From assembly GCF_030013595.1 (NCBI RefSeq), contig NZ_CP122768.1: DNA of 64,000 nt. One strand, given 5' to 3'. The number at the start of each line of letters is the position of its first letter. Position 1 is the stretch's first letter. Positions 14,199-31,413 of the stretch are shown piece after piece. A program made the position numbers and the translations under genes. The notes under the pieces are model-generated. The model was not told where the DNA came from, did no database searches, and saw nothing but the letters and a program-made list of their open reading frames with translations. This stretch comes from Escherichia coli (GTDB lineage: Bacteria > Pseudomonadota > Gammaproteobacteria > Enterobacterales > Enterobacteriaceae).

Positions 14199-14248
14199 TC
14201 GTTTCGGCGCAATTTTCAGCAAACGATCAAAAGTGGTGAAAAATATCG

Positions 14249-14276
14249 TTGACTCATCGCGCCAGGTAAGTAGAAT
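14249..14276 (+). promoter_or_regulatory. Sigma-70 promoter of the glyW-cysT-leuZ tRNA operon
   Basis: TTGACT - 16 bp - TAGAAT about 75 bp upstream of tRNA-Gly. Confidence 0.5.
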
Positions 14277-14349
14277 GCAACGCATCGAACGGCGGCACTG
14301 ATTGCCAGACGATAATAAAATCAAGTTATTAACTGATTGCTTGATGAAT

Positions 14350-14425
<76 letters not shown>

Positions 14426-14479
14426 GTTTAAAAGGCATCGGCGTCAAGCGGATGTCTGGCTGAAAGGCCTGAAGAATTT

Positions 14480-14553
14480 GGCGCGTTAACAAAGCGGTTA
14501 TGTAGCGGATTGCAAATCCGTCTAGTCCGGTTCGACTCCGGAACGCGCCTCCA
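14480..14553 (+). tRNA. cysT: tRNA-Cys (GCA)
   Basis: GGCGCGTTAACAAAGCGGTTATGTAGCGGATTGCAAATCCGTCTAGTCCGGTTCGACTCCGGAACGCGCCTCCA read directly. Confidence 0.92.
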
Positions 14554-14565
14554 CTTTCTTCCCGA

Positions 14566-14652
14566 GCCCGGATGGTGGAATCGGTAGACACAAGGGATTT
14601 AAAATCCCTCGGCGTTCGCGCTGTGCGGGTTCAAGTCCCGCTCCGGGTACCA
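14566..14652 (+). tRNA. leuZ: tRNA-Leu (TAA), long-variable-arm type; 3' part lies inside prophage attL
   Basis: GCCCGGATGGTGGAATCGGTAGACACAAGGGATTTAAAATCCC...GGTTCAAGTCCCGCTCCGGGTACCA read directly. Confidence 0.92.
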
Positions 14653-14722
14653 TGGGAAAGATGAGAATAAAATCAAAGCAATAAGCAGTGTCGTGAAACC
14701 ACCTTCGGGTGGTTTTTTTGTG
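14597..14722. repeat. Prophage attL: 126-bp direct repeat (3' 56 nt of tRNA-Leu plus downstream terminator)
   Basis: Same 126 bp at 60374..60499 with one mismatch (gatgaga vs gataaga); flanks differ on both sides. Confidence 0.85.
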
Positions 14723-14782
14723 TCTTCTTTCTCATTTCCGAAGATGCGTCCGAAGATGATTTTTCTCTGGACGCATCATCAT

Positions 14783-15826
14783 TCATTTTCTCTGGCCACC
14801 AACTACGGGCACTACTTTAACTTTTCGGTCATATGCTGCTGTCTGTCGTGGGTTCTTATGCCCGGAAATTGCTTGCTTCTCTTCCAGGCTGCCTTCCAGA
14901 TCAGAGATACCTTTTGCTTTCAGATCATGAAATGTGAAGTCTATTTGCAGATGAGGATATTTTTCCTGTGCTGCCGCTTTGACATCACGCCAACGAGAGT
15001 TAAAACCATCACGGGTGTACTTGCCTCCGGTAGTTTGATGAATCACAAACAGGCTACTGATTCCCGGTTTTAATGGCAGAGAACGAGCCAGAGCTATCGC
15101 TTTCTGCAGACGAGGCGACCAGGCTTTGATTTGCTTAACGCCGGTTTTTCCCTGACGAATGTAGATCCCGGAATCGAACAGCTGGTCTTTCTGTAATGAA
15201 AGTACATCACTCTGTCTGGCCACACATAAGTAGGCAATCTCCATTGCCACGCGAACAACATCAGGAGACACTTCATAAACGGCCTGATATTCTTCATCCG
15301 TAATATAACGTTCGCGTGCTGTCTCTTTAAACTGCTTAACTCCCTGACAAGGATTCCTCTGGACATAACCTCGTTCATAACCCCAACGGAATACCCTGGA
15401 CATAAAGCTTTTTTCCCTATTTGCCTGAGTTCGGCTTGATAAACCGCGTTGATCCATATAGCGCCGAATATGTTCAGGTTTGATTTTATCCGGGTCGATC
15501 TTCCCGAAGACAGGCAGAACTTTTCCGGAATATTTTGTGTAGTCTTTCCTGGTTTCGACTGCCAAATCCATAAAATCAGGGGAGGTCATGAATTGTTCCG
15601 CGAGCGCCTGAAAAGTATTTCTTTCTTTTTCGTCACCGACCGCTTTTTCATATGCCAGCCATACGGCTGATCGTGGCGCATCCAATGCGCACAGGCGTAT
15701 CGCTTTGTTATCTTTATTCCTGAATTCGTAGGCCGCTTTGCCCTGGTAAACACGAGGCGGCATCCAGTTATCTGCTGGGTTCTTTCTCTTTCCGGCCATT
15801 AAATATTGCTCCAAAATCAGGTTCAT
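14783..15826 (-). CDS. int: Prophage tyrosine integrase
   Basis: 347-aa ORF next to attL/tRNA, opposite orientation; C-terminal region (...HDLKAKGISDLEG...SGHKNPRQTAAYDRK) resembles tyrosine-recombinase catalytic region. Confidence 0.85.
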   Translation of the reverse strand: MNLILEQYLMAGKRKNPADNWMPPRVYQGKAAYEFRNKDNKAIRLCALDAPRSAVWLAYEKAVGDEKERNTFQALAEQFMTSPDFMDLAVETRKDYTKYSGKVLPVFGKIDPDKIKPEHIRRYMDQRGLSSRTQANREKSFMSRVFRWGYERGYVQRNPCQGVKQFKETARERYITDEEYQAVYEVSPDVVRVAMEIAYLCVARQSDVLSLQKDQLFDSGIYIRQGKTGVKQIKAWSPRLQKAIALARSLPLKPGISSLFVIHQTTGGKYTRDGFNSRWRDVKAAAQEKYPHLQIDFTFHDLKAKGISDLEGSLEEKQAISGHKNPRQTAAYDRKVKVVPVVGGQRK

Positions 15827-16031
15827 CTTCTTTTCGCGTCGTCACCTCCTGTAAATTGCGAAATTTTATTGGGTTCAAGAAATGGCCCCAGGTTGTTTTT
15901 GGGTGCCCGTCAGCCCTTTCCATGAAGAAAATTCCAGCCCGGCGAAGAGCCTCACATTGCTTTGATTTAAGTGGGCTTCCCGTCAGCTCGACCATTTCTT
16001 CTCTGGTGATTATGTCGTGATCGCTTTTCAT
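15768..16031 (-). CDS. Putative excisionase / small DNA-binding protein
   Basis: 87-aa ORF immediately upstream of int and overlapping its start, as for lambdoid xis; no diagnostic motif. Confidence 0.35.
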   Translation of the reverse strand: MKSDHDIITREEMVELTGSPLKSKQCEALRRAGIFFMERADGHPKTTWGHFLNPIKFRNLQEVTTRKEDEPDFGAIFNGRKEKEPSR

Positions 16032-16240
16032 GGTCTTTCCTCATTATGTAGCTTATTGCGTCATCTGCCTTCTGGCAGGCACGGGCAATATCAGACTCGG
16101 TCAAAGTCTGTTTCCTGACGCTGGCCGACAGTCGGCCAATTTTGATATCAAATGCGGAGAGCAGAGTTGCTCCCGGTTGCCATCGCAGCATTGTGATCCT
16201 CCGGTTACTGGTGAAACGCAATGCTAGCGATGGTGAGTTT

Positions 16241-16423
16241 TTATTTCTGATTAGGCGTAATCAGTTCTGGTGGGGGGAATGCCGATTTCTCCCGCGTGAC
16301 CTTAATGTTTTCTGGCAGGTGTAGCCCAAGTTCGCAGCGACTCCGTGCTTCAATAATGCCATTGGTACCATCGGCAAGTACCAGGTGAACCGCGTCACCA
16401 CGCTTTAATGTGAGTTTAAGCAT
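16241..16423 (-). CDS. Small early protein with CsrA-like sequence pattern
   Basis: 60 aa MLKLTLKRGDAV...GLHLPENIKVTREK; gapless alignment to CsrA (MLILTRRVGETL...GVNAPKEVSVHREE) conserves M1 L2 L4 T5 G9 G33 P37 V42 R44 E45. Confidence 0.3.
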   Translation of the reverse strand: MLKLTLKRGDAVHLVLADGTNGIIEARSRCELGLHLPENIKVTREKSAFPPPELITPNQK

Positions 16424-16992
16424 TAGCGTACCCTCAGCGAACGTTCGCCGCGTTCCAGATGTGCGCCTGGTACCGGGTTTAATAACTCGGCTGGTGGTGT
16501 TTCTCCACGCGCCAGTATTTCGGCGGCAACCGCCTCCGCAGATTCAATCACTTCTTTAATGGCTCGCTTGTTTGGTGTAATAACCGTTTCTACATCAACA
16601 AGTGACACGCCTTCATACTCATCCGGGATCTTATCTTTGCTATCGATAATTACCCGGATAGCCCCCTGTGCATCAGTAAATGTGTTTTTTGCGGTTTTTA
16701 GTTTATCCAGGCCAGCAGCTTGCAGGCAGGCGAGCATATGCTTCCGAATTGCTTTTTCCTTGCCTTCAAAGGACGTCTTACGGGTAGCCAGGCGAGACAT
16801 TTCTTCAGCGCAGGTACTGGCATTGCCCTGTAAATTACGGCAGATGACCATCATGGCGTCCAGTTTGTCTCCCAGTTCTCCTTCCATACCTTCAAGCGTG
16901 TCGGCGATCATCTCTGGCGTCAGTTCGTCGGAGGTTTCTAACAGGTCAATCAGACTGGCATATTCTTTTGCAATAGCGATAGCAGTGCTCAT
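16423..16992 (-). CDS. Phage recombination-module protein (Gp157-like, tentative)
   Basis: 189-aa acidic ORF directly downstream of the annealing-protein gene; family from memory. Confidence 0.4.
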   Translation of the reverse strand: MSTAIAIAKEYASLIDLLETSDELTPEMIADTLEGMEGELGDKLDAMMVICRNLQGNASTCAEEMSRLATRKTSFEGKEKAIRKHMLACLQAAGLDKLKTAKNTFTDAQGAIRVIIDSKDKIPDEYEGVSLVDVETVITPNKRAIKEVIESAEAVAAEILARGETPPAELLNPVPGAHLERGERSLRVR

Positions 16993-19214
16993 GCTGTTTG
17001 CTCCTGTGCTGCGGTGAGGGCGGTGAGGCGTTCGGTTTTGATTTCATTCAAACGGCGCAGGCGCGAACCAAGATAAGTTGAATACTCCTTATCACCTTTG
17101 GATTCTGCGGCCTTGCGGTGAACTTCTACTTCCCGCGCAATAAGGCCATAGACTTTATTAACTTCATTGGGGGTTACGGCTGCAGCCAGTGTTTTGGCAA
17201 CACCTGAGAGTCGTTCATCCAGTTCTTCACGCAGTCGGGTAGCATCCTCTGCTTTCTCGCTTGCCTTCTTAATACTGTATTCTGTATTCAGCTCGGCGGT
17301 GTAGGCACTATCGTTATGCATATCCATATAAACATCTGCCGCAAATCCCAGATGAGATAGTGCTTTGACGGTGGCATCAGTAAGAGACTTTTTGGAGGCC
17401 TCTTTTTCCATTACCAGTGCCCCTTTGTTATTTTTTGATATGTAATCCGTGTGGCCATATGACGGAATAAATCCTTTCACTCCGTTCCAGATGTACCAGA
17501 GATCTATCCGGATGGTGTGTACTGACAGGCAGAACAGGGAACCGTCAGCATCCCTGACAGGTTTTTGTCCAATAATTTTCCCTGTCTGATCCTGTATAGG
17601 TTCAAGTAATGGCACACCGCGATCCACTCGCTCCTCCTTGATTTCAACTCCCCAACCAATGCCTTCCATTCCCAGCACTTCAGTCGCACGCATCAAAATA
17701 TATTGTGCGCGTATGGAGTGCAGTCCTGCACCGTAATCATTATGTGTGACATACGCAGGATCGGTCCGCTGAACGCGATTCCAGATAGCCAAATTTGCTT
17801 TGCTCTGGTCATCATTCATTGCTGACAGATAATGCTCCATGCGAATTGATGCAGTTTTTTCCTCGGCATGGGGCGGCTCAACCAGCGCGTCAACGTTCTG
17901 CACCAGGTCTTTTACCTGCTCGCTAAGTTTTTCTTGTGGAGGAGTCTCTTCTGCCGGGGTAATAGCTGCAGGTTCCCTCTGTGATACGGCGTTATTTTCA
18001 GGTACGTCATACACATGGCGAGGCGTGACAAACTGCTCACGCAACTGCTGCAAACTACGTTCTCCAGCATTTGCTGCTTCGCTTTTTTCGCCCTGATTTG
18101 AGGGTGTTTCTGACATCATTCCATCAATTGAGAATCGCCCGCCGCCGTGGTTGGTGACTTTTACATCATCCTTTGGTGCTGTTTCCTTTGGCTTCTCTTC
18201 AACAGCATTTGCATCACGCTGCCCGTTAGCTTGCAGCCAGTTGTCGATGTGACTGCGCAGGGATTGCGGGAAGTGGTACGTGTCTTTTGCGGGGGCGCTC
18301 TGAATAACACCGAATACTGATGCGCGGTCATAGGCAAGGATCTGATCCGTTGTGCGCAAGGCCATTGACCAGCGTTTAAAATCCTCCCGATCCTGGCTGA
18401 TTATTTCGTCTGCCGCTTTCAGGACGCTGGGGGTGATTTTTTCCGGGCCAACGGGTAACAGGGCGCAGGCAATTTCACGATCCAGTGTGGCGTGAGTCTG
18501 TTGGTAAGGACGTGCGGATGCTGTTTCTGGTTTTACCTCCGGCAGCATTTCATCGCGTTTACCGGGATTCTCTACCCATTTTTTTATAAATTTGGAGATA
18601 GTCCAACTGGTCGGGTTTTGTTCCTGGGTATCGCAACTTGCCAAAATTGCATGTACCAGATTATTCAATCCAGCAATATGCATGTACTCGATGGGCTTAC
18701 ACGCCACCATGGCATCAAGAACGATGCGGTTAAACGCGTCAACCTCATCCTCACTGTCAGTATCACTGTTGTCGAGCATCTCCAGGTATTCACGCGTCTG
18801 CGCAAGCAATTCACTGTCGACTTCGTTGGCGTCGTGGCTGAACAGCAGGACGGCGGCGAAGCGTTCACGAGCCGGCAGTTTCATCAGGTCGTTAACCTGT
18901 GCGATATCTGCTGAACCGCTATCTGAATCAGCGGGGGTGTTAACTACCCATTTTTCGCCATCAAAACTGTGTTCTGTGGCAAACGTCTCATCAAACTCAC
19001 CGACGCCAGGGCGCGGTTGGCCCGGGGCATCTTCCCAGATTTTAGGTTTGAAATAGTTGTCGCCGTGGTCAGGGTAGGCTTCCCACAATTTGCCGATGAT
19101 GATGTTCTCGGCAACTTTTTTGTTAGGGGCGTCGATGGCGATGGCCAGCGCCGGGATCGCGCCGTTTTTGAGCGCGCCTTTTTTCGCTTCTAACAAGCCG
19201 TTAAAGATGGTCAT
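16989..19214 (-). CDS. Large early protein with C-terminal Erf/Rad52-type single-strand annealing domain (tentative)
   Basis: 741-aa ORF, RBS GAGGAAAGACCA before ATG; C-terminal ...KEASKKSLTDATVKALSHLGFAADVY resembles the Erf signature; N-terminal ~450 aa acidic, unrecognised. Confidence 0.5.
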   Translation of the reverse strand: MTIFNGLLEAKKGALKNGAIPALAIAIDAPNKKVAENIIIGKLWEAYPDHGDNYFKPKIWEDAPGQPRPGVGEFDETFATEHSFDGEKWVVNTPADSDSGSADIAQVNDLMKLPARERFAAVLLFSHDANEVDSELLAQTREYLEMLDNSDTDSEDEVDAFNRIVLDAMVACKPIEYMHIAGLNNLVHAILASCDTQEQNPTSWTISKFIKKWVENPGKRDEMLPEVKPETASARPYQQTHATLDREIACALLPVGPEKITPSVLKAADEIISQDREDFKRWSMALRTTDQILAYDRASVFGVIQSAPAKDTYHFPQSLRSHIDNWLQANGQRDANAVEEKPKETAPKDDVKVTNHGGGRFSIDGMMSETPSNQGEKSEAANAGERSLQQLREQFVTPRHVYDVPENNAVSQREPAAITPAEETPPQEKLSEQVKDLVQNVDALVEPPHAEEKTASIRMEHYLSAMNDDQSKANLAIWNRVQRTDPAYVTHNDYGAGLHSIRAQYILMRATEVLGMEGIGWGVEIKEERVDRGVPLLEPIQDQTGKIIGQKPVRDADGSLFCLSVHTIRIDLWYIWNGVKGFIPSYGHTDYISKNNKGALVMEKEASKKSLTDATVKALSHLGFAADVYMDMHNDSAYTAELNTEYSIKKASEKAEDATRLREELDERLSGVAKTLAAAVTPNEVNKVYGLIAREVEVHRKAAESKGDKEYSTYLGSRLRRLNEIKTERLTALTAAQEQTA

Positions 19215-19244
19215 TGGTCTTTCCTCATTACAGGTCAGTGGTCT

Positions 19245-19565
19245 TTAGTAGGGGATTTCATCAGTATCTGGCGTGTATTCGATGCAAAGTAACTGCTGGA
19301 TTTTGTCATCGATAGCAGCAATACGCTGTTGGGCGTCGGCGACTGTTTTCTGTTTTTGCTCATACAGCTGCTCGACCTGCAAACCGATGATGTCGATTGG
19401 CTGGGGCTGGTTGACGGTAATTTCAATTTCGCGGCTTTCCAGAAGGATGTACCTGTCTGGAAAATTTTTTGACATATCAACAGTCGCAACAAGCAGCTTT
19501 TCGTGGCTGAAAGTTGAAGTTGCATAATTAATAAAGAGTGTTACTGGGATGGTGCGCGCTTCCAT
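19245..19565 (-). CDS. Hypothetical early-left operon protein
   Basis: 106-aa ORF with AAGGAG RBS; first gene after the ORF-poor leader. Confidence 0.45.
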   Translation of the reverse strand: MEARTIPVTLFINYATSTFSHEKLLVATVDMSKNFPDRYILLESREIEITVNQPQPIDIIGLQVEQLYEQKQKTVADAQQRIAAIDDKIQQLLCIEYTPDTDEIPY

Positions 19566-20416
19566 AGCGACTCCTTGGTGATGTATACTCGGGACCGATC
19601 AGCGAATATTGATCAGCTTCCATAGCGTCAGTGTCGTTGGTCTTTCCTCATCACAAGTTTGGTCACTTGTGATAAATCCGAATGGTTTGGTCGCCGTTCG
19701 GGGTAACTGGCCCGCCTTGTGCGGGTCTTTTGCTATCTAAAGGGTGCCGGTTACGTTTCCGGCGTCGTTATGTTTCCATCACGACCGTACGGGGCTGGTC
19801 TTTCCTGTTTTGAGCTGGTCAGGCTCATGGTCAACGCTGGTCAGGCGTGGTACTTCCTCCGGTCTTTCCCTGGTGTCACGCTGCGGGTTTGGCCTCTCCT
19901 GTTGGGGACTCAGGCACAGCGATAAAACCTGGCTGTGTGAAAAAATGGCCCATCGTGCGGACTGGGCAAAGGCTAAACACAGCAAATTGATGATGGGCGC
20001 CCGGAATCGAACCGGGTAACGGGCAGGGAGTTCCCGTTAAACACCTGTTCACCACAACCGGGAGCGCACTCCGCCATTTCAAAATTTAACGACAAAGCTC
20101 AAAGTTGAGTCGATGAAGTGCGCTCTCGTGTTGTAGCCAGGACTCTTCCCTGGTGGTCACACCGTATCGCCTTGATGGTGAATCAATCGCTCATACCTGG
20201 CTGTGGCTTGCACATTCCGGCTAGCTGCTATGGAGACAACGCGTTAAGGCTCCGCTTCCATCCAGACCGCTTCGACACATGTGCCATATGCCGGCGAAGT
20301 CTTTCCCTCTGTCATCGTGTTGGCGCCGACGCGCAAAATTTGATGCCGTCTTTCCGGCTGTCAGAACGTGTTTCTGAACAACTGCCGCTGGGTAAGCGTT
20401 GTTGATGAAAGTGACT

Positions 20417-20436
20417 TTACAATTTGTATTTGTAAT
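20417..20436. promoter_or_regulatory. Putative left operator (OL-like) palindrome
   Basis: ttacaatttgtatttgtaat with TTACAA / TTGTAA half-sites, same half-site as at 21010..21048 on the other side of the repressor gene. Confidence 0.4.
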
Positions 20437-20561
20437 GGTCAACGTATTTTTAAAAAATAATTTGTAGTTAGGGGCAAAAAAATATTCACTGTGTAAAGGT
20501 GTTTTTGTGTTAGGGGGAAAGTTGCATGCCAGCAGCGGCTGGCCTGGAAATTTGAACTGAA

Positions 20562-20975
20562 CTATTTTGTCTGGTTTTTGGCTTCAAGTAGTTCTTTTAG
20601 CAGTAGATCGAAGTGCTCTCTTTTTTCTTTTAGCTCATTGATTAATTTATTTTTTTCGCTCTCAGGCAGTCCTCTGAATAGTTGCAGTAGAGCCTGTTCT
20701 TGCGGGGTTAGTTCTTGATTGTAATTACCCGGGTGTAGCGTGGATTCATCCAAATATTCACCTTCATTCATGAAGAAAAAATGAACAGGGTATCCGGTCA
20801 CTTTTGCTAGCTTGTCTAATTTATCTTTTCTTGGAGTTACCCCATTACACCATGCCTGAACTGATTGAGCCGTAACCCCAATATGGCGAGCTAACTCAGA
20901 TTGAGACCAGCCTAAGTCTTTTAGAATCCGTTGTAGTCGGCTAGCAAAAGCCATGTTTTTCGTTTTTGTGTTCAT
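20562..20975 (-). CDS. Prophage repressor (CI/RacR-like, XRE-family HTH)
   Basis: HTH LGWSQSELARHIGVTAQSVQAWCNG; divergent from cro-like gene; exact start uncertain (track ORF extends to 20990 with TTG). Confidence 0.6.
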   Translation of the reverse strand: MNTKTKNMAFASRLQRILKDLGWSQSELARHIGVTAQSVQAWCNGVTPRKDKLDKLAKVTGYPVHFFFMNEGEYLDESTLHPGNYNQELTPQEQALLQLFRGLPESEKNKLINELKEKREHFDLLLKELLEAKNQTK

Positions 20976-21009
20976 ACCGTAAGGATACAAGGTTTAATTG
21001 TAGGGAGCA

Positions 21010-21048
21010 TTGCAAATATAATTTGTAATTACAGTTATGATTTGTAAT
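21010..21048. promoter_or_regulatory. Putative right operator region (OR-like) between repressor and cro-like gene
   Basis: ttgcaaatataatttgtaa palindrome plus a second atttgtaat half-site. Confidence 0.45.
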
Positions 21049-21073
21049 GATGGCGCGGACACAAGGAGTCCAT

Positions 21074-21304
21074 ATGGATAAACAACTGCAAGACAAAATT
21101 CTTTCCGTAATGAGTCAATCCGAGTTAGGGCGGCGATTAGGGAAAAAACCACAAACGGTAAGCCTCTGGTTCAAAGGAAGGGTTCCCGGTGAAGAGGTTT
21201 TGCGCACATCTGAAGCTCTTGAATGGCGCGTGACCCCCCATGATCTTAGACCGGATCTTTACCCAAACCCAGATGACAGCTTGCCTAAAACGAAAGCAGC
21301 TTAA
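21074..21304 (+). CDS. Cro/YdaS-like HTH regulator
   Basis: AAGGAG RBS before MDKQLQDKIL...; HTH SQSELGRRLGKKPQTVSLWFKG; divergent from repressor. Confidence 0.55.
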   Translation: MDKQLQDKILSVMSQSELGRRLGKKPQTVSLWFKGRVPGEEVLRTSEALEWRVTPHDLRPDLYPNPDDSLPKTKAA

Positions 21305-21362
21305 CTGTTGGTGAGCCCCAAATCTGATTAAGCGTAATCAATTTTTAGCGACAGGAGACGCT

Positions 21363-21839
21363 ATGGAAAACCAAGAGGAATTACAAAAAGAGATTTTGAC
21401 CTGGGCGGCAAGGGCAGGGCAGGAACTCGTCACGATTGAAATCTGCCGGGCCTGGTTCAGTCAGGGACGCAATGATGAGTTGAGACTACATGAATTTGAG
21501 GACGCGGACGGCAATGTGGACTGGAGAGCCATCAACAACAATCGGCAGAAAATCTTTCGCTGGTTACGTGGCGAGACAACGGCGGCGCGCCGAAAAACTC
21601 AGGTGCTGGCCAGTGTGATGAAAGCCGTGCTACCCGCAGAACGGCGGGCGCGTCTGGAGTCGCCGGGCGATCCCGTTTTGCTGGCAACGCTGGCGGCAAA
21701 AGAAGGGGTGGAAGCGATTAACGCTGTACATCTCCACTTCGCGCCAGAGATAACTATTCAGGAAATTGACGAAGCAATAGCGGCGCTGGTAGCGACGCGA
21801 GGGGCAGTGATAAGCACTGCGCAAGGCCATCATGCATGA
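21363..21839 (+). CDS. YdaT-like / CII-like early regulator
   Basis: 158 aa; ...NRQKIFRWLRGET... resembles Rac YdaT as I recall; position after cro. Confidence 0.45.
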   Translation: MENQEELQKEILTWAARAGQELVTIEICRAWFSQGRNDELRLHEFEDADGNVDWRAINNNRQKIFRWLRGETTAARRKTQVLASVMKAVLPAERRARLESPGDPVLLATLAAKEGVEAINAVHLHFAPEITIQEIDEAIAALVATRGAVISTAQGHHA

Positions 21840-21878
21840 GCGCCTGACCAGCGTTTAACTTATACCGAGGAAAGACCG

Positions 21879-22103
21879 ATGTTAAGACATATTGACCGCA
21901 TTACCTGGCGTAACGGCTGGCACCTGAATGGACGCCCGGCACATGTTGCAGAGATCCAACCTATTTTTGATGGGCGTATGGCTGCCGCGCTTTCGGTGTG
22001 GGAGCAGTATGAATCCAGGAAGGTCGAGTTGCGCGACAAAGGGCTGAGCAATGCGGACTATGAAGCCGGTTGTCGTCAGATAGCCGAAGCTCTGGAGATC
22101 TGA
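21879..22103 (+). CDS. Hypothetical early protein
   Basis: 74-aa ORF preceded by the recurring ACCGAGGAAAGACC leader motif. Confidence 0.4.
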   Translation: MLRHIDRITWRNGWHLNGRPAHVAEIQPIFDGRMAAALSVWEQYESRKVELRDKGLSNADYEAGCRQIAEALEI

Positions 22104-22105
22104 GT

Positions 22106-23182
22106 ATGAGTCGTTTGCTGATTAACGAAAACCCCCTTCAGGTCCTGCCCACGTTGGCATGCACTATAGGGTTGAATGAAGCCATCGTTCTACAGCAAAT
22201 CCACTACTGGCTGAATTCATCTCAAAATTTCTTCGAAAATCGCCACTGGGTGTACAACAGTGTGACCGATTGGCAAGAACAATTCCCGTTCTGGAGCGAG
22301 TCGACAATAAAACGCGTGCTGGCCAATCTGGAAAAATTGAATGTGGTATTTACTGGGAACTTTAACAGTGATGCCTGGGATAAAACCAAGTGGTATTCAA
22401 TCAATTATGCCCAGTTATGTAAGATTGAAGAGACAACATTCCCTGTGGCCAATCGATTAGGTCAAGTTGACCCAATCGAAGAGGTCAATGTGACCCAAGC
22501 ATCAGGTCAAGTTGACCCATGCGCTAAGGTCAAAATGACCCAATCTCTTACAGAGAATACAACAGAGAGTACTACAGAGAGTACTACAGAGATAAAAGAT
22601 CCCCCTTACCCCCAAAAGGGGGAGGGCGAGGAAATCATTCTCGCTGACGCTCAAAAAGCTCTGAACTACTACAACGAGAAAGTCGGTACACGCTGCCGCG
22701 ACGTTAAACCGTTTGTCATGCTGCTGACTGCCACCACCACCCGCGCTGGTTACAGCGTGGCTGAGATTCAGTTAGTAATTCGTTGGGTTATTGCGACATG
22801 GCGCCGTCGTAGCGGAAGCGTGCCGAAACCTGCGAACATTTGCCGCGTAAACCGGTTTGACGGATATCTGGCTGACGCTGAGGCGTGGGCCACTGCTGAG
22901 GCTGCCGTTGACCCTGCTGAAGTTGTGAAGGGCTACAACGAGATTCTGGGCGACCTGCTACCTATAGCTGAAATTGATACTGACCGCCGTCGGGCAATCC
23001 TGCGCCTGCTGGCACATATGCGCACGCAAACTCTTGGCGCATTTATCGGCTACTTCGAAAAATTCCGCGATAACGCCCCAGACTTCTATTTCGGCGGCGA
23101 ATATCGCACCGGCTGGCGGGCAGGGTTTGATTACCTGATGAAGCCAGAAACACTGCGTAAAACCAGGGAAGGGGCATTATGA
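22106..23182 (+). CDS. Replication initiator (lambda O-like, ori iterons inside the gene)
   Basis: GGAG RBS before MSRLLINENPL...; four GGTCAA-NN-TGACCCA iterons and a TESTTESTTE-encoding repeat in mid-gene; followed by helicase. Confidence 0.6.
   Translation: MSRLLINENPLQVLPTLACTIGLNEAIVLQQIHYWLNSSQNFFENRHWVYNSVTDWQEQFPFWSESTIKRVLANLEKLNVVFTGNFNSDAWDKTKWYSINYAQLCKIEETTFPVANRLGQVDPIEEVNVTQASGQVDPCAKVKMTQSLTENTTESTTESTTEIKDPPYPQKGEGEEIILADAQKALNYYNEKVGTRCRDVKPFVMLLTATTTRAGYSVAEIQLVIRWVIATWRRRSGSVPKPANICRVNRFDGYLADAEAWATAEAAVDPAEVVKGYNEILGDLLPIAEIDTDRRRAILRLLAHMRTQTLGAFIGYFEKFRDNAPDFYFGGEYRTGWRAGFDYLMKPETLRKTREGAL
22460..22543. repeat. Origin iterons: 4 copies of GGTCAA(NN)TGACCCA at ~23-bp spacing
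   Basis: ggtcaagttgaccca / ggtcaatgtgaccca / ggtcaagttgaccca / ggtcaaaatgaccca, followed by (actacagagagt)n. Confidence 0.6.
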
Positions 23183-24570
23183 ATCCAGAAGAACTGGAAG
23201 CGATCGTTCTCGCTGGTCTGATTAACGGTGGCGCGACGCCTGACGCGTTTGATGTGATTGCCACTACTCCGGAGGAAGCCTTCAGCATCGTGTTTCACCG
23301 TCGCGCTTTCAGCGAAATCAAAAAGCAGGCACTGGCGAACGGCATGATCGACATGTTGTTTATCAGCGAAGCGCTGGGCGGTTCCAGCCTTGCGGATCTG
23401 TCTCAAATATCCCGGATCCCGGCAACGGTACCGAATCTGAAAGGCTATGCCGGGAAAATGGTGCGGGCATGGCGGAGCCGCAAAATGGCGGCATTGTTGC
23501 AATCTGGCGCGGATGGTATCCGTAACGCTGTAAACCAGAGTCAGCGTGATGAGGTTATTGAATCTCATGTTGCTCAGGTGCTGGATATGAGCGCCGCTAC
23601 CGGCACAGTCCAGCCGGTACACATCAAAGAGCTGTTACCGCTCTACATTGACACCGTTGATAAACGGATGTCTGGCGACGCGCAGGAAATGATGCTGAAA
23701 ACCGGAGTCGAGGATCTGGATGTCGCCCTGGGCGGTATCAACATGACCGACCTTGTTGTGGTTGCCGGTCGTCCAGGCATGGGGAAAACGGAATTTACCC
23801 TGAAGATTATCGATGGCGTTACCGCAGATGGCGGCGGCGCACTGTTTTTCAGCATGGAAATGGGCGCTCAGCAGATTGTTGAACGTACCGTTGCCGGGGC
23901 TGGGAATATGTCCACGTCGCGTCTGCGTAATCCAAAAGAAATGGACGATGAGGATTTGACCAGATTAACCGCCGCGCTTGCAATCATGCAGGATCGCGAT
24001 ATCTGGATTGTTGATGCCACTGATTTGACGATTGAGCAGATCCGCGCCATTGCAGAGACTCATAAACGCCGTTATCCGCACCTGAAGTTGATTGGTGTTG
24101 ATTACATGGGCCTGATCAAAAAACCGAAGGCCGAGCGCCACGATCTCGCTGTCGGGCATATCTCCCGCAACATGAAGACTATGGCCATGCGTCTGCATAC
24201 CCCTGTTTTTGCTCTTAGCCAGCTTTCCCGCCAGGTGGATTCTCGACCTGCTGGCCAGCGTCGCCCGGTGATGTCGGACCTGCGCGATTCCGGCAGTGTT
24301 GAGCAGGACGCTGACAGCATTTTGTTTTTGTACCGCGATGAAGTTTACACACCTGATTCACCTGCAAAGGGTATCGCCGAGGTGATTATCGGTAAAAACC
24401 GTTCTGGCGGGGCAGGTGAAATTATTTATCAGGAATTCCGGAATGGGCATTTCCTGCCAATTGATCAACACGTAGCACGCGAAAAATTACGCATCCAGAA
24501 GGAGGCAGAGCAACCGAGAAAACGTGAAAAACGGTATTCAAACAAAAACTTTAATACGGACCCATTTTAA
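23179..24570 (+). CDS. Replicative DNA helicase (DnaB family)
   Basis: 463 aa; Walker A GRPGMGKTEF, DnaB-like C-terminal motifs (SQLSRQVDSR, DLRDSGSVEQDADSILFLYRDEVY). Confidence 0.8.
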   Translation: MNPEELEAIVLAGLINGGATPDAFDVIATTPEEAFSIVFHRRAFSEIKKQALANGMIDMLFISEALGGSSLADLSQISRIPATVPNLKGYAGKMVRAWRSRKMAALLQSGADGIRNAVNQSQRDEVIESHVAQVLDMSAATGTVQPVHIKELLPLYIDTVDKRMSGDAQEMMLKTGVEDLDVALGGINMTDLVVVAGRPGMGKTEFTLKIIDGVTADGGGALFFSMEMGAQQIVERTVAGAGNMSTSRLRNPKEMDDEDLTRLTAALAIMQDRDIWIVDATDLTIEQIRAIAETHKRRYPHLKLIGVDYMGLIKKPKAERHDLAVGHISRNMKTMAMRLHTPVFALSQLSRQVDSRPAGQRRPVMSDLRDSGSVEQDADSILFLYRDEVYTPDSPAKGIAEVIIGKNRSGGAGEIIYQEFRNGHFLPIDQHVAREKLRIQKEAEQPRKREKRYSNKNFNTDPF

Positions 24571-24608
24571 CCACGCATGACCAGCGTGAAATAACCGAGG
24601 AAAGACCA

Positions 24609-25019
24609 ATGACCACCATTTCAGGCAAATTAGAGTACCCGTCGGACAAAGGACACATAGACGACGGTAAAAACTATCTCGACGTCATTTTGTGGAATAT
24701 GAACGCCGGGCCACGTGCGCGCACTCGTGCGGTTTTTGTACCAAGACCCAAAGCAGGCAATTTTTCAACACCAGCTCAGCCTGCCCGTCAGGCATCCGTA
24801 GCCGCAGCGCCAGCAGTGAAATGTAAGGGTAAAACGCACATCGGGATCGCGATTCGCAGAAATGGTGAGCGGCAAGTGAAACTCCACGAAACAGCGACAA
24901 CCTGGTGTGCTTCACCGCATGAAACTTACGACAAGATAACCGGGCAGCGCATTGGTGCGCCTGGTCGCTGTCGCCTGCTGTTGAGCTCCATCACTCCGAT
25001 AGAAAAGAAAGGGGCGTGA
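24609..25019 (+). CDS. Hypothetical nin-region protein
   Basis: 136-aa ORF preceded by ACCGAGGAAAGACCA leader motif. Confidence 0.4.
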   Translation: MTTISGKLEYPSDKGHIDDGKNYLDVILWNMNAGPRARTRAVFVPRPKAGNFSTPAQPARQASVAAAPAVKCKGKTHIGIAIRRNGERQVKLHETATTWCASPHETYDKITGQRIGAPGRCRLLLSSITPIEKKGA

Positions 25020-25020
25020 T

Positions 25021-25257
25021 ATGACCGGGCAATCAGATTACCTGCCGCCCGGCTTACCACACAACCGCGCCAAATGGCCCCAGGAATACCAGCTTAAAGA
25101 GCACTACGACATGCGAGCGGCGGCGCTGATCCGCCAACTCTTTGAGAAACGTATTCCGAGGGGAAGCGTGATTGAGCAAATCGGAATGACGCCGGATACA
25201 TACCGGGAATTTTTCAGAGAGCGTCTGAACTACTGGAGAGGGGTGATGGAACAATGA
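25021..25257 (+). CDS. Hypothetical nin-region protein
   Basis: 78-aa ORF, tightly packed with neighbours. Confidence 0.35.
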   Translation: MTGQSDYLPPGLPHNRAKWPQEYQLKEHYDMRAAALIRQLFEKRIPRGSVIEQIGMTPDTYREFFRERLNYWRGVMEQ

Positions 25258-25565
25258 AATACAAACGGTGGGTGCGTGCGGAAGTCGTAATCATCAAACA
25301 ATGTGCAGGCAGCATGACAGTTGAACGTATAGGGCAGCTTATTGGCAGAACCGGTGCAGCGGTACGCACAAAAGCGCGCGAGCTGAAAATCTGTATGTAT
25401 CTGCGGGGTAATTATCATCAGTCAGCGAAATACTGCCAGGAGGATATCGAGCTGGCAAGGGAATTACATCAGTCGGGTATTAATCGCCAGGATATCGCGG
25501 AAAAACTCGAAATGCCGATCGGAGCGGTGAATCAGTTTGTTTATTTTGAGCGGAGGATTTCATGA
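25254..25565 (+). CDS. Putative HTH DNA-binding protein
   Basis: 103 aa with two HTH-like segments (MTVERIGQLIGRTGAAVRTKAREL; INRQDIAEKLEMPIGAVNQF). Confidence 0.35.
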   Translation: MKYKRWVRAEVVIIKQCAGSMTVERIGQLIGRTGAAVRTKARELKICMYLRGNYHQSAKYCQEDIELARELHQSGINRQDIAEKLEMPIGAVNQFVYFERRIS

Positions 25566-25786
25566 AAGAACTTTTTCTGGCATTTGTGCCCCGGTTTATT
25601 AATGACCAGATCGCACTGACTAATAATGGTGAACAATATGAAATTGCCTGCAGCATGGTGGATGTGAATCCTGGCGAACGGTATGACGCGATGTGTGACC
25701 TGAAAATATTTACCTGGCTGGGTTGGGCTATTCCGTGTGGAGAACCAACCAATATTCGCCCATTTGAGAGCAGGGAGGCTGTATGA
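25562..25786 (+). CDS. Hypothetical protein
   Basis: 74-aa ORF overlapping neighbours by 4 nt. Confidence 0.3.
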   Translation: MKELFLAFVPRFINDQIALTNNGEQYEIACSMVDVNPGERYDAMCDLKIFTWLGWAIPCGEPTNIRPFESREAV

Positions 25787-25949
25787 GTGAATTGAAAATA
25801 CGAATGAACCCAAGTCGCAAGGCGATCAAATTTGCGCAGTGTGTCTTGCAGATGGCTGAAGGTGAATGTTATATAAAAGAGTGTCATGGATAACAAGGCA
25901 CTCACTATCAATGATTATCTGTTAAAAAAGCAATCGACAAGGAGTTGAA

Positions 25950-26207
25950 ATGCAGACTCAATTAAAGGTTAAAGGCGGTTATAGTCATTTTTTCTTCGCC
26001 AATATTGAAGTCTCACAAAGAGAGTCAAATGGCGGTTTGGTTGTCGTTAGGGATGTTAATATACCTATTACAACAACAACTCTCTCTCTGTTAGAGAATT
26101 ACGCTGTAGGGCAGGTGTTGACGTTAGAACAAAAGAATGGCGATTTTTTTGATGTGTATTACGTTGGAACTGATGGGAATAACTTTCAGTTTTCAACGCA
26201 CTGCTAA
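25950..26207 (+). CDS. Hypothetical AT-rich small protein (3' end lies in repeat copy A)
   Basis: 85-aa ORF with AAGGAG RBS; its last ~90 nt reappear degenerate at 31186.. Confidence 0.4.
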   Translation: MQTQLKVKGGYSHFFFANIEVSQRESNGGLVVVRDVNIPITTTTLSLLENYAVGQVLTLEQKNGDFFDVYYVGTDGNNFQFSTHC

Positions 26208-26350
26208 TTTATCAAGGCCCTGTGAGCAGGGCCTTCGAAAGCCTACTAAAGTCTGTTTCATAGAGAGAGTTATTTGCGATTAAAAAGGTATTTGGTCACG
26301 ACCAGCACGATAGAGAATACATCTTTCAAAGTACCGCCCATATAAAACAG
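26118..26350. repeat. Imperfect direct repeat, copy A (~230 bp)
   Basis: Roughly 80-85% identical by eye to 31186..31413 (ttgacgttagaacaaaa ... aaaaggtatttggtcacgacca). Confidence 0.7.
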
Positions 26351-26649
26351 TTACATATGCACTTGATGACTAAGCTGGCACCAGGTTAACACCATGCGCC
26401 AGCTTGAAGGAGACTTCAGTTATTGGTTTCTGAGGAAAGCGATTCTTGAAAGGGTCATTTGCGTCTGGCAGTCGACCATTTTCTTGACTTCAGCATCTGT
26501 TCCTTTCTTGACTTCAGCATCTGTTCCCTGCATTGAAACTTTACCGCACATAGCATCCTTAGTTTTGATCCACTGGCGCTGAGAAGGCAGCAACTTGAAC
26601 CGCCCCGGAAATCCTGGAGACTAAACTCCCTGAGAAAGAGGTAAACAGG

Positions 26650-26976
26650 ATGACTAAAAATACTCGTTTTTCCCCCGAAGTCCGTCAGCGGGCGATTCGT
26701 ATGGTTCTGGAAAGTCAGGATGAATATGACTCACAGTGGGCGGCAATTTGTTCCATTGCCCCAAAGATTGGCTGTACGCCGGAGACTCTGCGTGTCTGGG
26801 TTCGCCAGCATGAGCGGGATACCGGGGGCGGTGATGGTGGGCTCACCAGCGCTGAACGTCAGCGTCTGAAAGAGCTGGAACGTGAAAATCGTGAACTGCG
26901 CCGCAGTAACGATATCCTTCGCCAGGCTTCCGCTTATTTTGCGAAGGCGGAGTTCGACCGCCTCTGGAAAAAATGA
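26650..26976 (+). CDS. IS3-family transposase OrfA (HTH)
   Basis: [41 protein letters not shown]...; ends in AAAAAATGA frameshift window (A-run 26968-26973). Confidence 0.85.
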
Positions 26977-27863
26977 TGCCACTGCTGGATAAGCTGCGTG
27001 AGCAGTACGGGGTCGGACCGGTATGTAGCGAACTGCATATTGCCCCGTCAACGTATTACCATTGTCAGCAACAGCGACATCATCCGGATAAACGCAGTGC
27101 CCGTGCGCAGCACGATGACTGGCTGAAGAAAGAGATACAGCGCGTATACGATGAAAATCACCAGGTATACGGTGTGCGTAAAGTCTGGCGTCAGTTGTTA
27201 CGGGAAGGTATCAGAGTGGCCAGATGCACTGTGGCACGTCTCATGGCAGTTATGGGACTTGCCGGTGTTCTCCGGGGTAAAAAGGTCCGCACTACCGTCA
27301 GCCGGAAAGCCGTTGCCGCAGGCGACCGCGTAAACCGTCAGTTCGTGGCAGAACGACCTGACCAGCTGTGGGTGGCTGATTTTACTTACGTCAGCACATG
27401 GCAGGGCTTCGTCTATGTGGCGTTTATCATTGATGTGTTTGCCGGATACATCGTGGGGTGGCGGGTCTCATCGTCTATGGAAACGACATTCGTGCTGGAT
27501 GCGCTGGAGCAGGCGTTGTGGGCCCGTCGTCCGTCTGGCACCATCCATCACAGCGATAAAGGCTCTCAGTATGTGTCACTGGCCTATACGGAGCGACTAA
27601 AAGAAGCCGGATTACTGGCATCAACAGGGAGTACAGGCGACTCGTATGACAACGCGATGGCTGAGAGCATCAATGGTCTTTACAAAGCGGAGGTAATACA
27701 CCGTAAGAGCTGGAAAAAACGTGCAGAAGTGGAACTGGCCACACTAACGTGGGTGGACTGGTATAACAATCGACGATTGCTGGGAAGGCTGGGCCATACT
27801 CCTCCGGCAGAAGCAGAAAAAGCTTATTATGCTTCCATCGGAAACGATGATCTGGCAGCCTGA
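26973..27863 (+). CDS. IS3-family transposase OrfB (DDE catalytic domain), -1 frame relative to OrfA
   Basis: 296 aa with DDE integrase-core-like region (...[31 protein letters not shown]...[10 protein letters not shown]...[15 protein letters not shown]). Confidence 0.85.
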
Positions 27864-31082: not shown

Positions 31083-31185
31083 ATGACGAAAGTGGGTTGT
31101 TTATAAGAATTGAATAAACAACCCATCATTTTAATGTACTCTGAATCCTCTCATTCTTAGTGAAATATTGTTTTTAGAACACGTA

Positions 31186-31413
31186 TTGACGTTAGAACAA
31201 AAAATAGATTTTTTTGTGATGTATTACGTTGGAGTTGATGGGATAATTATATGTTTTCAATACATTGTTAATTTATCAAGACCCTGCGACTAAGGTGTTC
31301 GAAAATCGACTAAAGTCTGTTTCATAGAGAGAGTTACTTGCGTTTAAAAAGGTATTTGGTCACGACCAACACGAGGCCGAATACCTCAGTTTAAGTACCG
31401 CTCATGTACAACA
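31186..31413. repeat. Imperfect direct repeat, copy B (~230 bp)
   Basis: Degenerate duplicate of 26118..26350, including a decayed copy of the 3' end of the 25950..26207 gene. Confidence 0.7.

Follow-up and report, generated by a model that had tools for sequence, protein, structure and literature searches.

Recurrent start-region labels in the early genes of an Escherichia coli prophage and a candidate antisense RNA that would read them

Several early genes of this prophage, on both strands, begin behind the same short leader. What does this leader do, and why does it also occur where no gene follows? The motif GGAAAGACC has seven exact copies in the 64 kb stretch analyzed here (the window), all within 16040-24599, the prophage early region, and all oriented with early transcription. 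In four cases the start codon lies 0-1 nt after the motif (21879+, 24609+, 19214- and 16031-). With up to one mismatch allowed across the window, GAGGAAAGACC gave 6 matches against 0.71 expected, a count of at least 6 being reached in 0/100 shuffles, and CTGACCAGCG gave 15 against 3.35 expected. Hairpins with a GACC loop and a stem of at least 4 bp are similarly enriched (8 found within 15700-25100, 0.71 expected). All copies listed in the first-pass annotation were recovered (21843-21878 and 24577-24608 on the plus strand; 19215-19250, 19637-19649 and 19796-19870 on the minus strand), together with one that it had not listed, at 16032-16042 (-), directly before the ATG at 16031 of a DUF4224/xis gene.

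In its complete form the label runs from a hairpin through an A/C-rich spacer, usually 10-13 nt long, to GAGGAAAGACC-N-AUG. The first target start region (21837..21881, +) leads into ATG 21879 of phrog_2465, the first gene of the replication block; its hairpin, UGAGCGC[CUGACCA]GCGUUUA (21837-21857; loops are bracketed throughout), is followed by an 11-nt spacer and by GAGGAAAGACC at 21867-21877. The second (24572..24611, +) serves ATG 24609 of phrog_5148, the gene after DnaB, with the hairpin CACGC[AUGACCA]GCGUG (24572-24588, z -2.36), a 10-nt spacer and GAGGAAAGACC at 24597-24607. In the third (19212..19250, -), GAGGAAAGACC at 19226-19216 precedes ATG 19214 of a 741-aa exonuclease, and the hairpin is degenerate, CA[CUGACC]UG being a 2-bp remnant; relatives carry a full hairpin at this position. 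The product had been called Erf-like, a name we found no support for; the protein matches the ‘exonuclease’ PHROG phrog_2489. The fourth (16029..16042, -) has GAGGAAAGACC at 16042-16032, adjoining ATG 16031 of the DUF4224 excisionase-like (xis) gene, with no hairpin in the window; in Serratia relatives, GUGUCGU[GUGACCG]ACGACGC stands upstream. The genes behind the copies belong to unrelated families, are exclusively non-structural and follow the motif in a single orientation. At the immediate-early genes cro, cII and phrog_2479 there is no motif, and the Shine-Dalgarno sequences (SDs) are ordinary.

The motif is the mark of one enterobacterial temperate phage family, and comparison across this family bears out the suggestion that the leader is more than a ribosome-binding site (RBS). 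The consensus, (G)AGGAAAGACC at 0-4 nt from the ATG, is not an SD core set in unrelated flanks: conserved positions extend 3' of the SD (AAGACC), and most copies have an upstream hairpin in which the GACC loop (CUGACCA or GACCAA) is conserved while the stems covary freely. In an unbiased set, stems of 4 bp or longer flank 68% of the TGACC occurrences that lie no more than 45 nt upstream of GGAAAGACC, compared with 3.2% of TGACC elsewhere in the same loci. Target stems are 75.6% paired against 57.0% in shuffles, and none of 500 shuffles was as high. The hairpin-to-RBS spacer measures 10-13 nt in 58/71 unique gene-proximal copies. Two flavors of the motif, GGAAAGACC (A-type) and GGCAAGACC (C-type), are rarely found together in one genome; among 52 loci with at least three start-proximal copies, 30 had only GGAAAGACC, 19 only GGCAAGACC and 3 were mixed. 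Because stems and spacers vary between copies within a genome, simple gene conversion is disfavored. Covariation, spacing and genome-specific flavors lend the same comparative support to the earlier proposal of a shared translational signal or phage-regulator binding site. About 8% of complete genomes of E. coli, O25b:H4-ST131 included, carry a prophage of this family, whose hosts are E. coli, Klebsiella, Enterobacter, Serratia and Pectobacterium.

Could such a label act purely in cis, as an optimized translation-initiation cassette that needs no trans factor? The hairpin would then insulate or stabilize the 5' side after the upstream stop, an A/C-rich standby region and a strong SD would follow, and the cassette would have spread as a linker by duplication and recombination at gene boundaries, in modular exchange. 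In keeping with this, the label is present only at cistrons that lack translational coupling to the preceding one, with the preceding stop codon 1-8 nt before the hairpin or at its 3' edge; accessory genes inserted into the operon carry their own label and come flanked by copies; and GAGGAAAGACC-N-ATG occurs singly and hairpin-free, as a plain RBS, in unrelated phages. A hairpin that merely stabilizes has no need of an invariant loop over variable stems, however, and a cis enhancer that the same ribosome reads is not expected to change from A to C at one position in all copies of a genome when the anti-SD is common to the hosts. With stems this diverse, recombination would also have no more than about 20 nt of uninterrupted homology to work with. 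We regard a purely cis-acting label as unlikely.

Not every copy is a gene leader, as had been assumed: no ORF lies behind 19637-19649 or 19796-19870. The first of these most probably mirrors the gene of the regulator itself, a putative antisense sRNA encoded on the plus strand. Taken over 19637-19672, it appears to be the complement of a candidate sRNA gene of ~140 nt (19596..19733, +; the start is approximate, 19594-19598) that opposes the PL operon, with the PL leader on one side of it and the first PL gene on the other. A candidate -10 box, TATACT (19584..19589, +), would belong to the putative sRNA promoter; TATA(C/A)T is kept in 32/32 distinct family sequences, with an extended TGnTATAAT in some members. 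The corresponding -35 region is weak, which is why a generic promoter scan did not call this promoter, and it would fall across the phrog_2479 start codon (19565-19563, -). Conservation of the -10 box could also stem from its place in the phrog_2479 5' UTR on the other strand. Downstream, the predicted seed GUCGUUGGUCUUUCCUC (19633..19649, +) is the complement of GAGGAAAGACCAACGAC and is single-stranded in the predicted minimum-energy fold. An alternative RNAalifold pairing joins the seed to a conserved 5' GAUCAGYG element, which in this model could mask it.

The seed is followed by two hairpins and a terminator. Hairpin 1, UCACAAGU[UUGGUC]ACUUGUGA (19651..19672, +), corresponds to the GACCAA-loop copy on the minus strand; in relatives its stems are wholly different (e.g. 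CCGUAGGG/CCCUACGG) and its loop is constant. Hairpin 2, CCGAAUGGU[UUGGUC]GCCGUUCGG (19678..19701, +), presents the same UUGGUC loop over many U-G pairs, which become C-A mismatches if read on the opposite strand. The candidate sRNA would end at a rho-independent terminator, GGCCCGC CUUGU GCGGGUC then UUUUGCUAUC (19709..19737, +), clear in 15/16 aligned relatives, where the stem comes in two covarying types and the tails range from U4 to U7. For the candidate as a whole, RNAalifold predicted 29 pairs, 18 with compensatory changes. Hairpins 1 and 2 together are 97.1% paired against 81.7% in shuffles (matched by 0/500), with compensatory changes at 14/18 pairs; on the PL-sense strand, pairing at the same positions drops from 97.1% to 81.2%. 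Promoter, covarying structure and intrinsic terminator all fall on one strand, the combination by which an independent sRNA gene is recognized. The region is without annotation in all RefSeq E. coli genomes sampled, and cmscan searches of 14000-32000 and 19570-19760 returned no Rfam family for the candidate, with no match to the C4 covariance model and 14.1 bits for isrK against a gathering score of 50.

Four cistrons are complementary to the seed from SD to AUG. Across 186 ORF start regions, predicted seed duplexes averaged -11.0 kcal/mol (sd 4.3), and the four strongest were those of the four motif genes (-32.9, -31.1, -25.6 and -25.3 kcal/mol), the best duplex outside them reaching -20.2 kcal/mol. 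The exonuclease start region matches the seed complement at 20/22 nt (-32.9 kcal/mol), and the xis start region (16029..16042, -), where the hairpin is missing, accounts for the -25.3 kcal/mol duplex. The sRNA gene is itself a motif copy, so its complementarity to other copies is true by construction. The seed flavor equals the target flavor in 40/40 loci with a detected sRNA gene, a match that may also reflect common descent and homogenization. The UUGGUC loops of both sRNA hairpins also complement the target loops, with only 5 bp of predicted loop-loop pairing. The hairpin lies 1-3 nt from the seed in the sRNA and 10-13 nt from the RBS in the targets, so the geometry of pairing is only plausible.

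The other ORF-less copies form an array in the PL leader (19797..19880, -), with GGAAAGACC at 19869-19861 and 19805-19797 and two hairpins, ACGC[CUGACCA]GCGU (19848-19834, -) and UGAGC[CUGACCA]GCUCA (19827-19811, -). Short ORFs within the array are not conserved, and the arrays of relatives are denser. Upstream of the array, the leader also contains a terminator-like hairpin with a U7 tract. A candidate PL promoter (TTGACC, 17 nt, TAAAGT; 20414..20442, -) sits beside AATTTGTAAT-like operator repeats, and a transcript from it would converge on the candidate sRNA gene and cross it. We propose that the leader sites may be decoys for the candidate sRNA.

The hairpins also bring to mind boxB-like nut sites for processive antitermination in the manner of lambda or P22 N. 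The P22 boxB, which we take to be GCGCUGACAAAGCGC, resembles GCGCCUGACCAGCGC here; the terminator-like U7-tract hairpin lies upstream of the array; and no N homologue is annotated, so another antitermination device might be expected. Against this, neither boxA form, GCTCTT(T/A)A or CGCTCTT, was found on the transcribed strands of 14600-30000, the early region holds no plausible small N-like Arg/Lys-rich ORF, and the product of the first PL gene, phrog_2479, is acidic. The hairpins come several to an operon and deep inside it, instead of one beside each promoter, and their tight coupling to RBS and start codon has no role in nut function. We consider nut sites highly improbable.

Motif anatomy, covarying target and sRNA hairpins, -10 box, terminator, complementarity and matched flavors, all established by sequence comparison, point instead to a trans-acting antisense RNA that would keep the cistrons for recombination, excision and replication from being translated, the PL leader supplying additional decoy sites; we give this reading about an even chance of being right. 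The candidate would have to be expressed and to pair in trans, the direction of its effect would be repression and the leader would serve as decoy. One and the same address label stands before every ‘delayed-early’ cistron that is translated independently (the exonuclease block, xis-int, phrog_2465-RepO-DnaB and the block that follows DnaB). It is made up of a hairpin that presents GACCA in a U-turn-type loop (C-U-G-A-CCA), an unstructured spacer of 10-13 nt and GAGGAAAGACC-N-AUG. The two UUGGUC loops of the sRNA would first kiss the target GACCA loop, and the single-stranded seed UUGGUCUUUCCUC would then zip over SD, spacer and start codon. This would keep out the 30S subunit, possibly creating an RNase III substrate, and repress recombination, excision and replication jointly. 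Upon induction, PL would fire, its transcript would run antisense across the sRNA gene and would bring the extra hairpin and GGAAAGACC sites of 19797-19880. With the sRNA promoter occluded and the sRNA soaked up, the targets would be released.

A protein could read the same label. Translational control by bound protein has precedents in T4 RegA, the MS2 coat protein and ThrRS on thrS. As in the thrS and MS2 operators and the T4 RegA sites, the hairpin here lies directly upstream of or overlaps the SD, a position at which a bound factor would bar the 30S subunit, and as with RegA one operator type is common to several mRNAs; in contrast to those systems, no matching protein was found in the prophage. 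If the label were an operator for a phage RNA-binding repressor or activator that reads the GACC loop, GGNAAGACC or both, the plus-strand RNA would be incidental or a decoy. Conservation of the loop and of the single-stranded 9-mer is consistent with this, as are the genome-specific flavors, the position of the hairpin 21-24 nt upstream of the AUG, where the 30S footprint has its 5' edge, and the several small proteins of unknown function always encoded in the module. One of these products, the 60-aa protein of 16241-16423 (-), aligns with CsrA from end to end, and Pfam CsrA is the top family in 11/22 of its relatives, albeit sub-threshold (best E 9e-4). The CsrA link is nonetheless weak: the match scores 13 bits where the cut-off is 27, hhalign gives a probability of 6%, BLASTP yields no alignment, CsrA is absent from the fold and PDB-profile matches of the 60-aa protein, and GGA, which CsrA-type proteins need, is missing from the C-type motif GAGGCAAGACC. 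No early protein matched a known RNA-binding family at threshold, the phrog_2465 model (pLDDT 90) has no PDB neighbor, and an operator offers no reason for a promoter and a terminator to be conserved on the other strand. On balance, we doubt that a protein is the reader.

Known phage RNAs offer parallels to the proposed antisense RNA. The C4 antisense RNA has relatives in P4 CI RNA, N15 CA RNA, P22 sar and lambda OOP. In P1, as summarized in PMC8198154 with reference to Citron & Schuster 1990, full repression of ant needs C4. Like C4 of P1 and P7 (immI), the candidate would be a small phage RNA that pairs with ribosome-binding regions of phage mRNAs and in this way adds a second layer of repression, acting post-transcriptionally, and regulator and target sites share the early/immunity region. 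The two have no sequence or Rfam relationship, however, and whereas C4 is matured by RNase P from a sense operon transcript, the candidate would be made from the strand opposite to its operon, where it has a -10 box and a terminator of its own. It would also address at least four separate cistrons in both divergent early operons through one standard label, with extra decoy-like copies in the leader. Kissing-loop antisense systems with YUNR U-turn loops include CopA/CopT, Sok/hok and RNAI/RNAII. The loops here likewise start Y-U-N-R (C-U-G-A in targets, U-U-G-G in the sRNA), a sequence suggestive of a U-turn, and 5-6 loop bases would make fast loop-loop contact before a helix forms over the SD. 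Those pairs are cis-encoded with one target each, whereas here a single combination of loop and seed would serve several mRNAs in trans.

An analogy, not a homology, exists with the start-associated sequences (SAS) of Cluster K mycobacteriophages, asymmetric 13-bp SD-containing motifs located 3-7 bp before the starts of some non-structural genes, in a single orientation and with unrelated gene families behind them (PMC3203893). About half of them have an upstream inverted repeat (ESAS), the consensus varies by subcluster and the function is unknown; in ESAS it is the repeat arms that are conserved, the differences between them lend no support to RNA pairing, and the authors favored DNA-binding proteins (PMC3203893). 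Our motif likewise precedes unrelated non-structural genes in one orientation, but it differs from the SAS consensus GGGATAGGAGCCC (3-7 bp before starts) in sequence ((G)AGGAAAGACC), distance (0-4 nt) and hosts. In contrast to ESAS, the stems here covary, the loop is conserved and a candidate trans-acting RNA can be named.

A broader reading, which we advance tentatively and hold somewhat less probable than the antisense mechanism itself, is that one phage sRNA provides a post-transcriptional ‘second immunity’. Interchangeable RNA labels (kissing hairpin plus SD-spacer) would mark every delayed-early cistron, the PL-leader sponge would lift the block on induction, and the GGAAAGACC and GGCAAGACC flavors would sort Enterobacterales phages into specificity (hetero-immunity) groups based on RNA. 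If true, a very common prophage family controls excision, recombination and replication through one sRNA and a reusable label, beyond its cI-type repressor, in a compact natural design that places several genes under one sRNA. This would explain why newly acquired early genes carry the same leader, and would provide a hypothesis for the mycobacteriophage start-associated sequences, namely that an antisense copy, equipped with a promoter and terminator of its own, may be found there. Prophage stability and superinfection specificity would also gain a second determinant.

The prophage sits in the E. coli chromosome at tRNA-Leu(UAA) (14566-14652), with uvrC-pgsA-glyW-cysT upstream of it. At the centre of its early region lies a cI-like repressor gene (20562-20990, minus strand). 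The leftward early genes, read from the minus strand, comprise int (14783-15826), an xis-like gene of the DUF4224 type (15768-16031), an ORF of 60 aa (16241-16423), Gp157, a 741-aa exonuclease (16989-19214) and phrog_2479 (19245-19565); next to phrog_2479 is an ORF-less stretch of ~1 kb. Rightward, on the plus strand, are cro/YdaS-like (21047-21304), cII/YdaT-like (21363-21839) and phrog_2465 (21879-22103), followed by a RepO-like gene, DnaB (23179-24570), phrog_5148 (24609-25019) and more genes beyond. Of 5426 complete E. coli genomes, 479 have this early region with an identity of at least 95%. A megablast search against GenBank phages returned no close relative of it, the nearest being ‘Stenotrophomonas’ phage BUCT708 at ~72% identity. 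AATTTGTAAT-like repeats occur on both sides of the repressor gene (20425-20480 and 21010-21050) and resemble OL and OR operators for the prophage's immunity type; cI and cro vary among relatives that otherwise have the same early module. An IS3-family element with a programmed-frameshift ALIL pseudoknot (26931-27047, 119 bits) lies inside the early-right region at 26650-27863, and in a near-identical prophage of another strain it is the exonuclease gene that is interrupted by an IS3 copy.

The first-pass annotation had described a recurring leader motif of ~35 nt before several early genes. Each copy it listed is present at its coordinates, and one more lies directly before the xis-like ATG at 16031. 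The motif itself is real; what had been read as its linear upstream half, ‘CTGACCAGCG’, is actually part of a hairpin, comprising its loop and the 3' arm of its stem. We call the whole unit, a hairpin with a GACC loop, a spacer and a conserved sequence abutting the start codon, the label. In the 64-kb window, GAGGAAAGACC with at most one mismatch was found 6 times against 0.71 expected, and the early region holds 8 GACC-loop hairpins, again against 0.71 expected. All seven exact copies of the 9-mer GGAAAGACC in the window fall within 16040-24599; copies to the left of the immunity region are on the minus strand and those to its right on the plus strand, so that they are co-oriented with transcription. 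Four of them lie 0-1 nt from start codons (16031 and 19214, minus; 21879 and 24609, plus), and three are within the ORF-less leader (19647, 19805 and 19869).

In the window the hairpin takes the forms AGCGC[CUGACCA]GCGUU before 21879 and CACGC[AUGACCA]GCGUG before 24609 (both plus strand), ACGC[CUGACCA]GCGU and UGAGC[CUGACCA]GCUCA in the leader, and UCACAAGU[GACCAA]ACUUGUGA at 19672-19651 (minus strand). When IMG/VR was scanned with GAGGAAAGACCNATG, at least 120 stretches matched, many with 3-5 copies on both strands, and the multi-copy stretches all carried the same early-gene module. Of 262 unique motif contexts, 127 were preceded by a GACC-loop hairpin whose stem was 4 bp or longer; among these 127, the loop was CUGACCA in 71, GACCAA in 24, AUGACCA in 14 and one of a few others in the rest, while the stems differed entirely between copies. 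When TGACC sites were taken without selection for pairing, stems of at least 4 bp formed at 68% of those up to 45 nt upstream of GGAAAGACC, compared with 3.2% of TGACC elsewhere in the same loci. In this unselected alignment the 5-bp stem was 75.6% paired versus 57.0% after shuffling (0/500 shuffles as high), and sliding the partner column gave 22-51%. In 58/71 unique gene-proximal copies, 10-13 nt separate the hairpin from GGNAAGACC, and the stop codon of the upstream ORF falls either 1-8 nt 5' of the hairpin or precisely at its 3' edge.

Genes that start over the preceding stop codon have no label, nor do the promoter-proximal genes (cro, cII and phrog_2479), whose Shine-Dalgarno (SD) sequences are ordinary (AAGGAG or CAGGAG). 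The label thus marks early cistrons that are promoter-distal and independently initiated. Serratia relatives retain it at the four orthologous positions despite a weaker SD. Several other roles for its parts were considered and rejected. AAGACCA is complementary to 16S 986-992 (UGGUCUU), but that segment is base-paired in helix 32; CTGACC as a -35 box has no -10 at a usable distance; and the 7-nt loop as a mimic of the tRNA-Val GAC anticodon arm would have C at position 37, and 5- and 6-nt loops also exist. An unannotated ORF of 74-84 aa (15967-16221, minus strand) spans the motif copy close to xis (...ISYIMRKDHEKRS...) and shares ~65 nt with the xis-like gene in a different frame; tblastn found it in 24 related loci, which nucleotide conservation alone may explain.

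The label occurs in two flavours, A-type and C-type, the latter carrying the A-to-C form GGCAAGACC, and the hairpin loops are identical between the two classes. Among 52 loci with at least three start-proximal copies, 30 had A-type labels only and 19 C-type only, and 3 were mixed. In a Symbiopectobacterium relative, 9 sites have GGCAAGACC and one further site has GGTAAGACC, and a second IMG/VR scan found the C-type in many phages, including Pectobacterium phage ZF40. Since stems and spacers vary among the copies inside one genome, single-base conversion from copy to copy is an unlikely cause of this purity, and it is simpler to suppose a trans-acting partner that matches the labels.

A candidate for such a partner is found in the prophage itself. 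The ORF-less copy adjoining phrog_2479 has the longest hairpin of the set, and its ‘start codon’ is ACG in many phages. Read on the plus strand, the same sequence contains, family-wide, the parts of a gene for a small RNA (sRNA) of ~140 nt (~19596-19733). A -10 box, TATA(C/A)T (19584-19589), is kept in 32/32 distinct sequences and extended to TGnTATAAT in some; it is followed by a 5' hairpin (19598-19617) whose GAUCAG(Y) loop is conserved in nearly all relatives, retaining a GATC (Dam) site just 3' of the promoter. Next come a seed, (U)UGGUCUU(U/G)CCU(C/A) (19637-19649), two hairpins with UUGGUC loops (19651-19672 and 19678-19701), GGGUAA, and a rho-independent terminator with a U-tract (19709-19727). 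RNAalifold predicted 29 pairs, 18 with compensatory changes. In hairpins 1 and 2, 97.1% of cells were paired versus 81.7% in shuffled alignments and 39-50% in slid controls, and 14/18 pairs were compensatory, a result matched by 0/500 shuffles. Many of these pairs are U-G, so that pairing drops to 81.2% on the strand sense to PL, the candidate leftward early promoter; the structure is therefore one of the plus strand. The region has no match in Rfam and is unannotated in RefSeq, and it occurs in 448/5426 complete E. coli genomes, including O25b:H4-ST131. Weaknesses of the candidate gene are its weak -35 and a -10 box that overlaps the 5' UTR of another gene. The seed could also be masked by pairing with the GAUCAGYG element near the 5' end (GAUCAGCG with CGUUGGUC). 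Closely 3' of the terminator is a second terminator-like hairpin on the plus strand (19743-19766; GGUGCCGGUUACGUUUCCGGCGUC then GUUAUGUUUC), whose CCGG..CCGG element is kept in relatives. The 33 nt at 19634-19666, covering the seed and half of hairpin 1, are 100% identical to a CRISPR-annotated sequence in E. coli strain 2020CK-00188, presumably a spacer taken from this phage family.

The seed follows the flavour of the labels. Its U-to-G form, GGUCUUGCC, is the counterpart of GGCAAGACC, and seed and target flavours agreed in 40/40 loci in which a strict pattern detected the sRNA gene (33 A-type, 7 C-type). A purely cis-acting start region, or a recombination ‘linker’, would agree with the label positions and with the cassette-like arrival of accessory genes. 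That reading fits the positions but not all the features, as it leaves the invariant loops, the genome-pure flavours and the opposite-strand promoter and terminator without explanation.

Full-length RNAduplex predictions of the sRNA against 65-nt start regions gave meaningless long-range duplexes and were replaced by a seed-only scan, in which the 22-nt seed region was paired with the start regions (-25 to +10) of every window ORF of 60 aa or longer, 186 in total. The top four duplexes were exactly those of the four labelled genes: the exonuclease (-32.9 kcal/mol), the gene at 24609 (-31.1), the gene at 21879 (-25.6) and xis (-25.3), with the next best at -20.2 and a mean over the 186 ORFs of -11.0 (sd 4.3). 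At the exonuclease start, 20/22 nt agree with the seed complement, from the SD through codon 2. Because the sRNA gene is itself a copy of the motif, complementarity alone is not independent evidence. The sRNA loops, UGGUC (UGGUU in Serratia), complement GACCA of the target loops, which start C-U-G-A, a YUNR-type pattern; U-turns of this type are a signature of kissing antisense systems. We propose that the sRNA would first touch each label loop-to-loop and then pair over the SD, spacer and AUG, so that the cistrons for recombination, excision and replication would be blocked at initiation. Transcription from PL (-35 TTGACC at 20442, -10 TAAAGT at 20414, minus strand) runs convergently through the sRNA gene, and the leader holds additional hairpin/GGAAAGACC units (19797-19880), denser in relatives; induction would thus both hinder sRNA synthesis and titrate the sRNA. 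The predicted kissing contact is only 5 bp, and the hairpins are degenerate at two targets in the window. Judged from sequence, the complete scheme, including relief by the PL leader, has about an even chance of being correct.

It is possible that the label is instead an operator for a protein, as the early module encodes several small proteins of unknown function. The protein of the 60-aa ORF (MLKLTLKRGDAVHLVL...) is conserved in the module and aligns with CsrA without gaps over its full length (L2, L4, T5, G9, G33, P37, V42, R44, E45); in 11/22 relatives the highest-ranking Pfam family is CsrA, the best E of 9e-4 being below threshold, and in an AlphaFold2 model of the protein (pLDDT 82) five strands follow a CsrA-like order. 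This resemblance, suggestive by eye, had no backing from hhalign, BLASTP, a PDB-profile search or a fold search with Foldseek, and C-type labels do not contain GGA. For phrog_2465 as a trans factor, a model with pLDDT 90.3 had no PDB neighbour at E<=0.001. A nut-like reading of the hairpins fails: boxA and an N-like protein are absent, and the sites are wrong in number and placement.

The PL leader contains other RNA features. A core of ~170 nt (20122-20293, minus strand, PL-sense) is strongly conserved, unannotated and present in otherwise unrelated phages: in P1, P7, D6 and SJ46 it is flanked by trnI and ban, and in SPN1S, Tyrion, PAT1 and phiV10, all Uetakeviruses, by terL and portal; in lambdoid phage mEp390 it follows just past the repressor gene, and Klebsiella phage SopranoGao has it too. 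RNAalifold on eight sequences gave 33 pairs, 8 of them compensatory, with G-U pairs that fit the minus strand. The core has no Rfam entry and no likeness to the HK022 put region, and looks like an undescribed structured RNA. As an antisense regulator it was rejected by eye, being complementary to the motif over at most 4-5 bp, and as an HK022 put RNA because the shared 10-16-mers are chance only and located inside nun. Hairpins with GAAAGA or GAAGAGU loops, each preceded by UGAC, recur at 20343-20363, 19861-19880 and 20143-20165 (all minus strand), and the core has one as its 3' hairpin; they include GCCG[GAAAGA]CGGC in the window, stems CCCG/CGGG and GUGU/ACAC in loci L125 and L123, and CCAGG[GAAGAGU]CCUGG. 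GAAAGA is kept even where the ribosome-binding-site motif is GGCAAGACC, so these hairpins are a class separate from the label. Directly after the core, within 19938-20072 (minus strand), is a piece resembling tRNA, whose T-arm, CCCGGUUCGAUUCCGGG, is perfect and which gave a weak tRNA-Sec hit (19.3 bits), followed by a hairpin and U7 terminator resembling the RprA 3' end (34 bits versus a gathering score of 70). The T-arm piece and terminator suggest that PL first yields a terminated or processed RNA of ~460 nt ahead of the early genes.

A literature search by sequence and topic in open-access papers returned only unrelated primers and papers, with neither motif nor sRNA described. The nearest system in appearance is SAS/ESAS in mycobacteriophages of Cluster K; RNA pairing is not supported by the inverted repeats there (PMC3203893), whereas the stems of the prophage label covary. 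The nearest in function is the P1/P7 antisense RNA C4, without which ant is not fully repressed (PMC8198154). The candidate sRNA has no sequence or Rfam relationship to C4 and differs in having its own opposite-strand promoter and in that it would address several targets on both operons. The leader motif is real and richer than first described, and we hold with moderate confidence that it represents phage control by antisense RNA.
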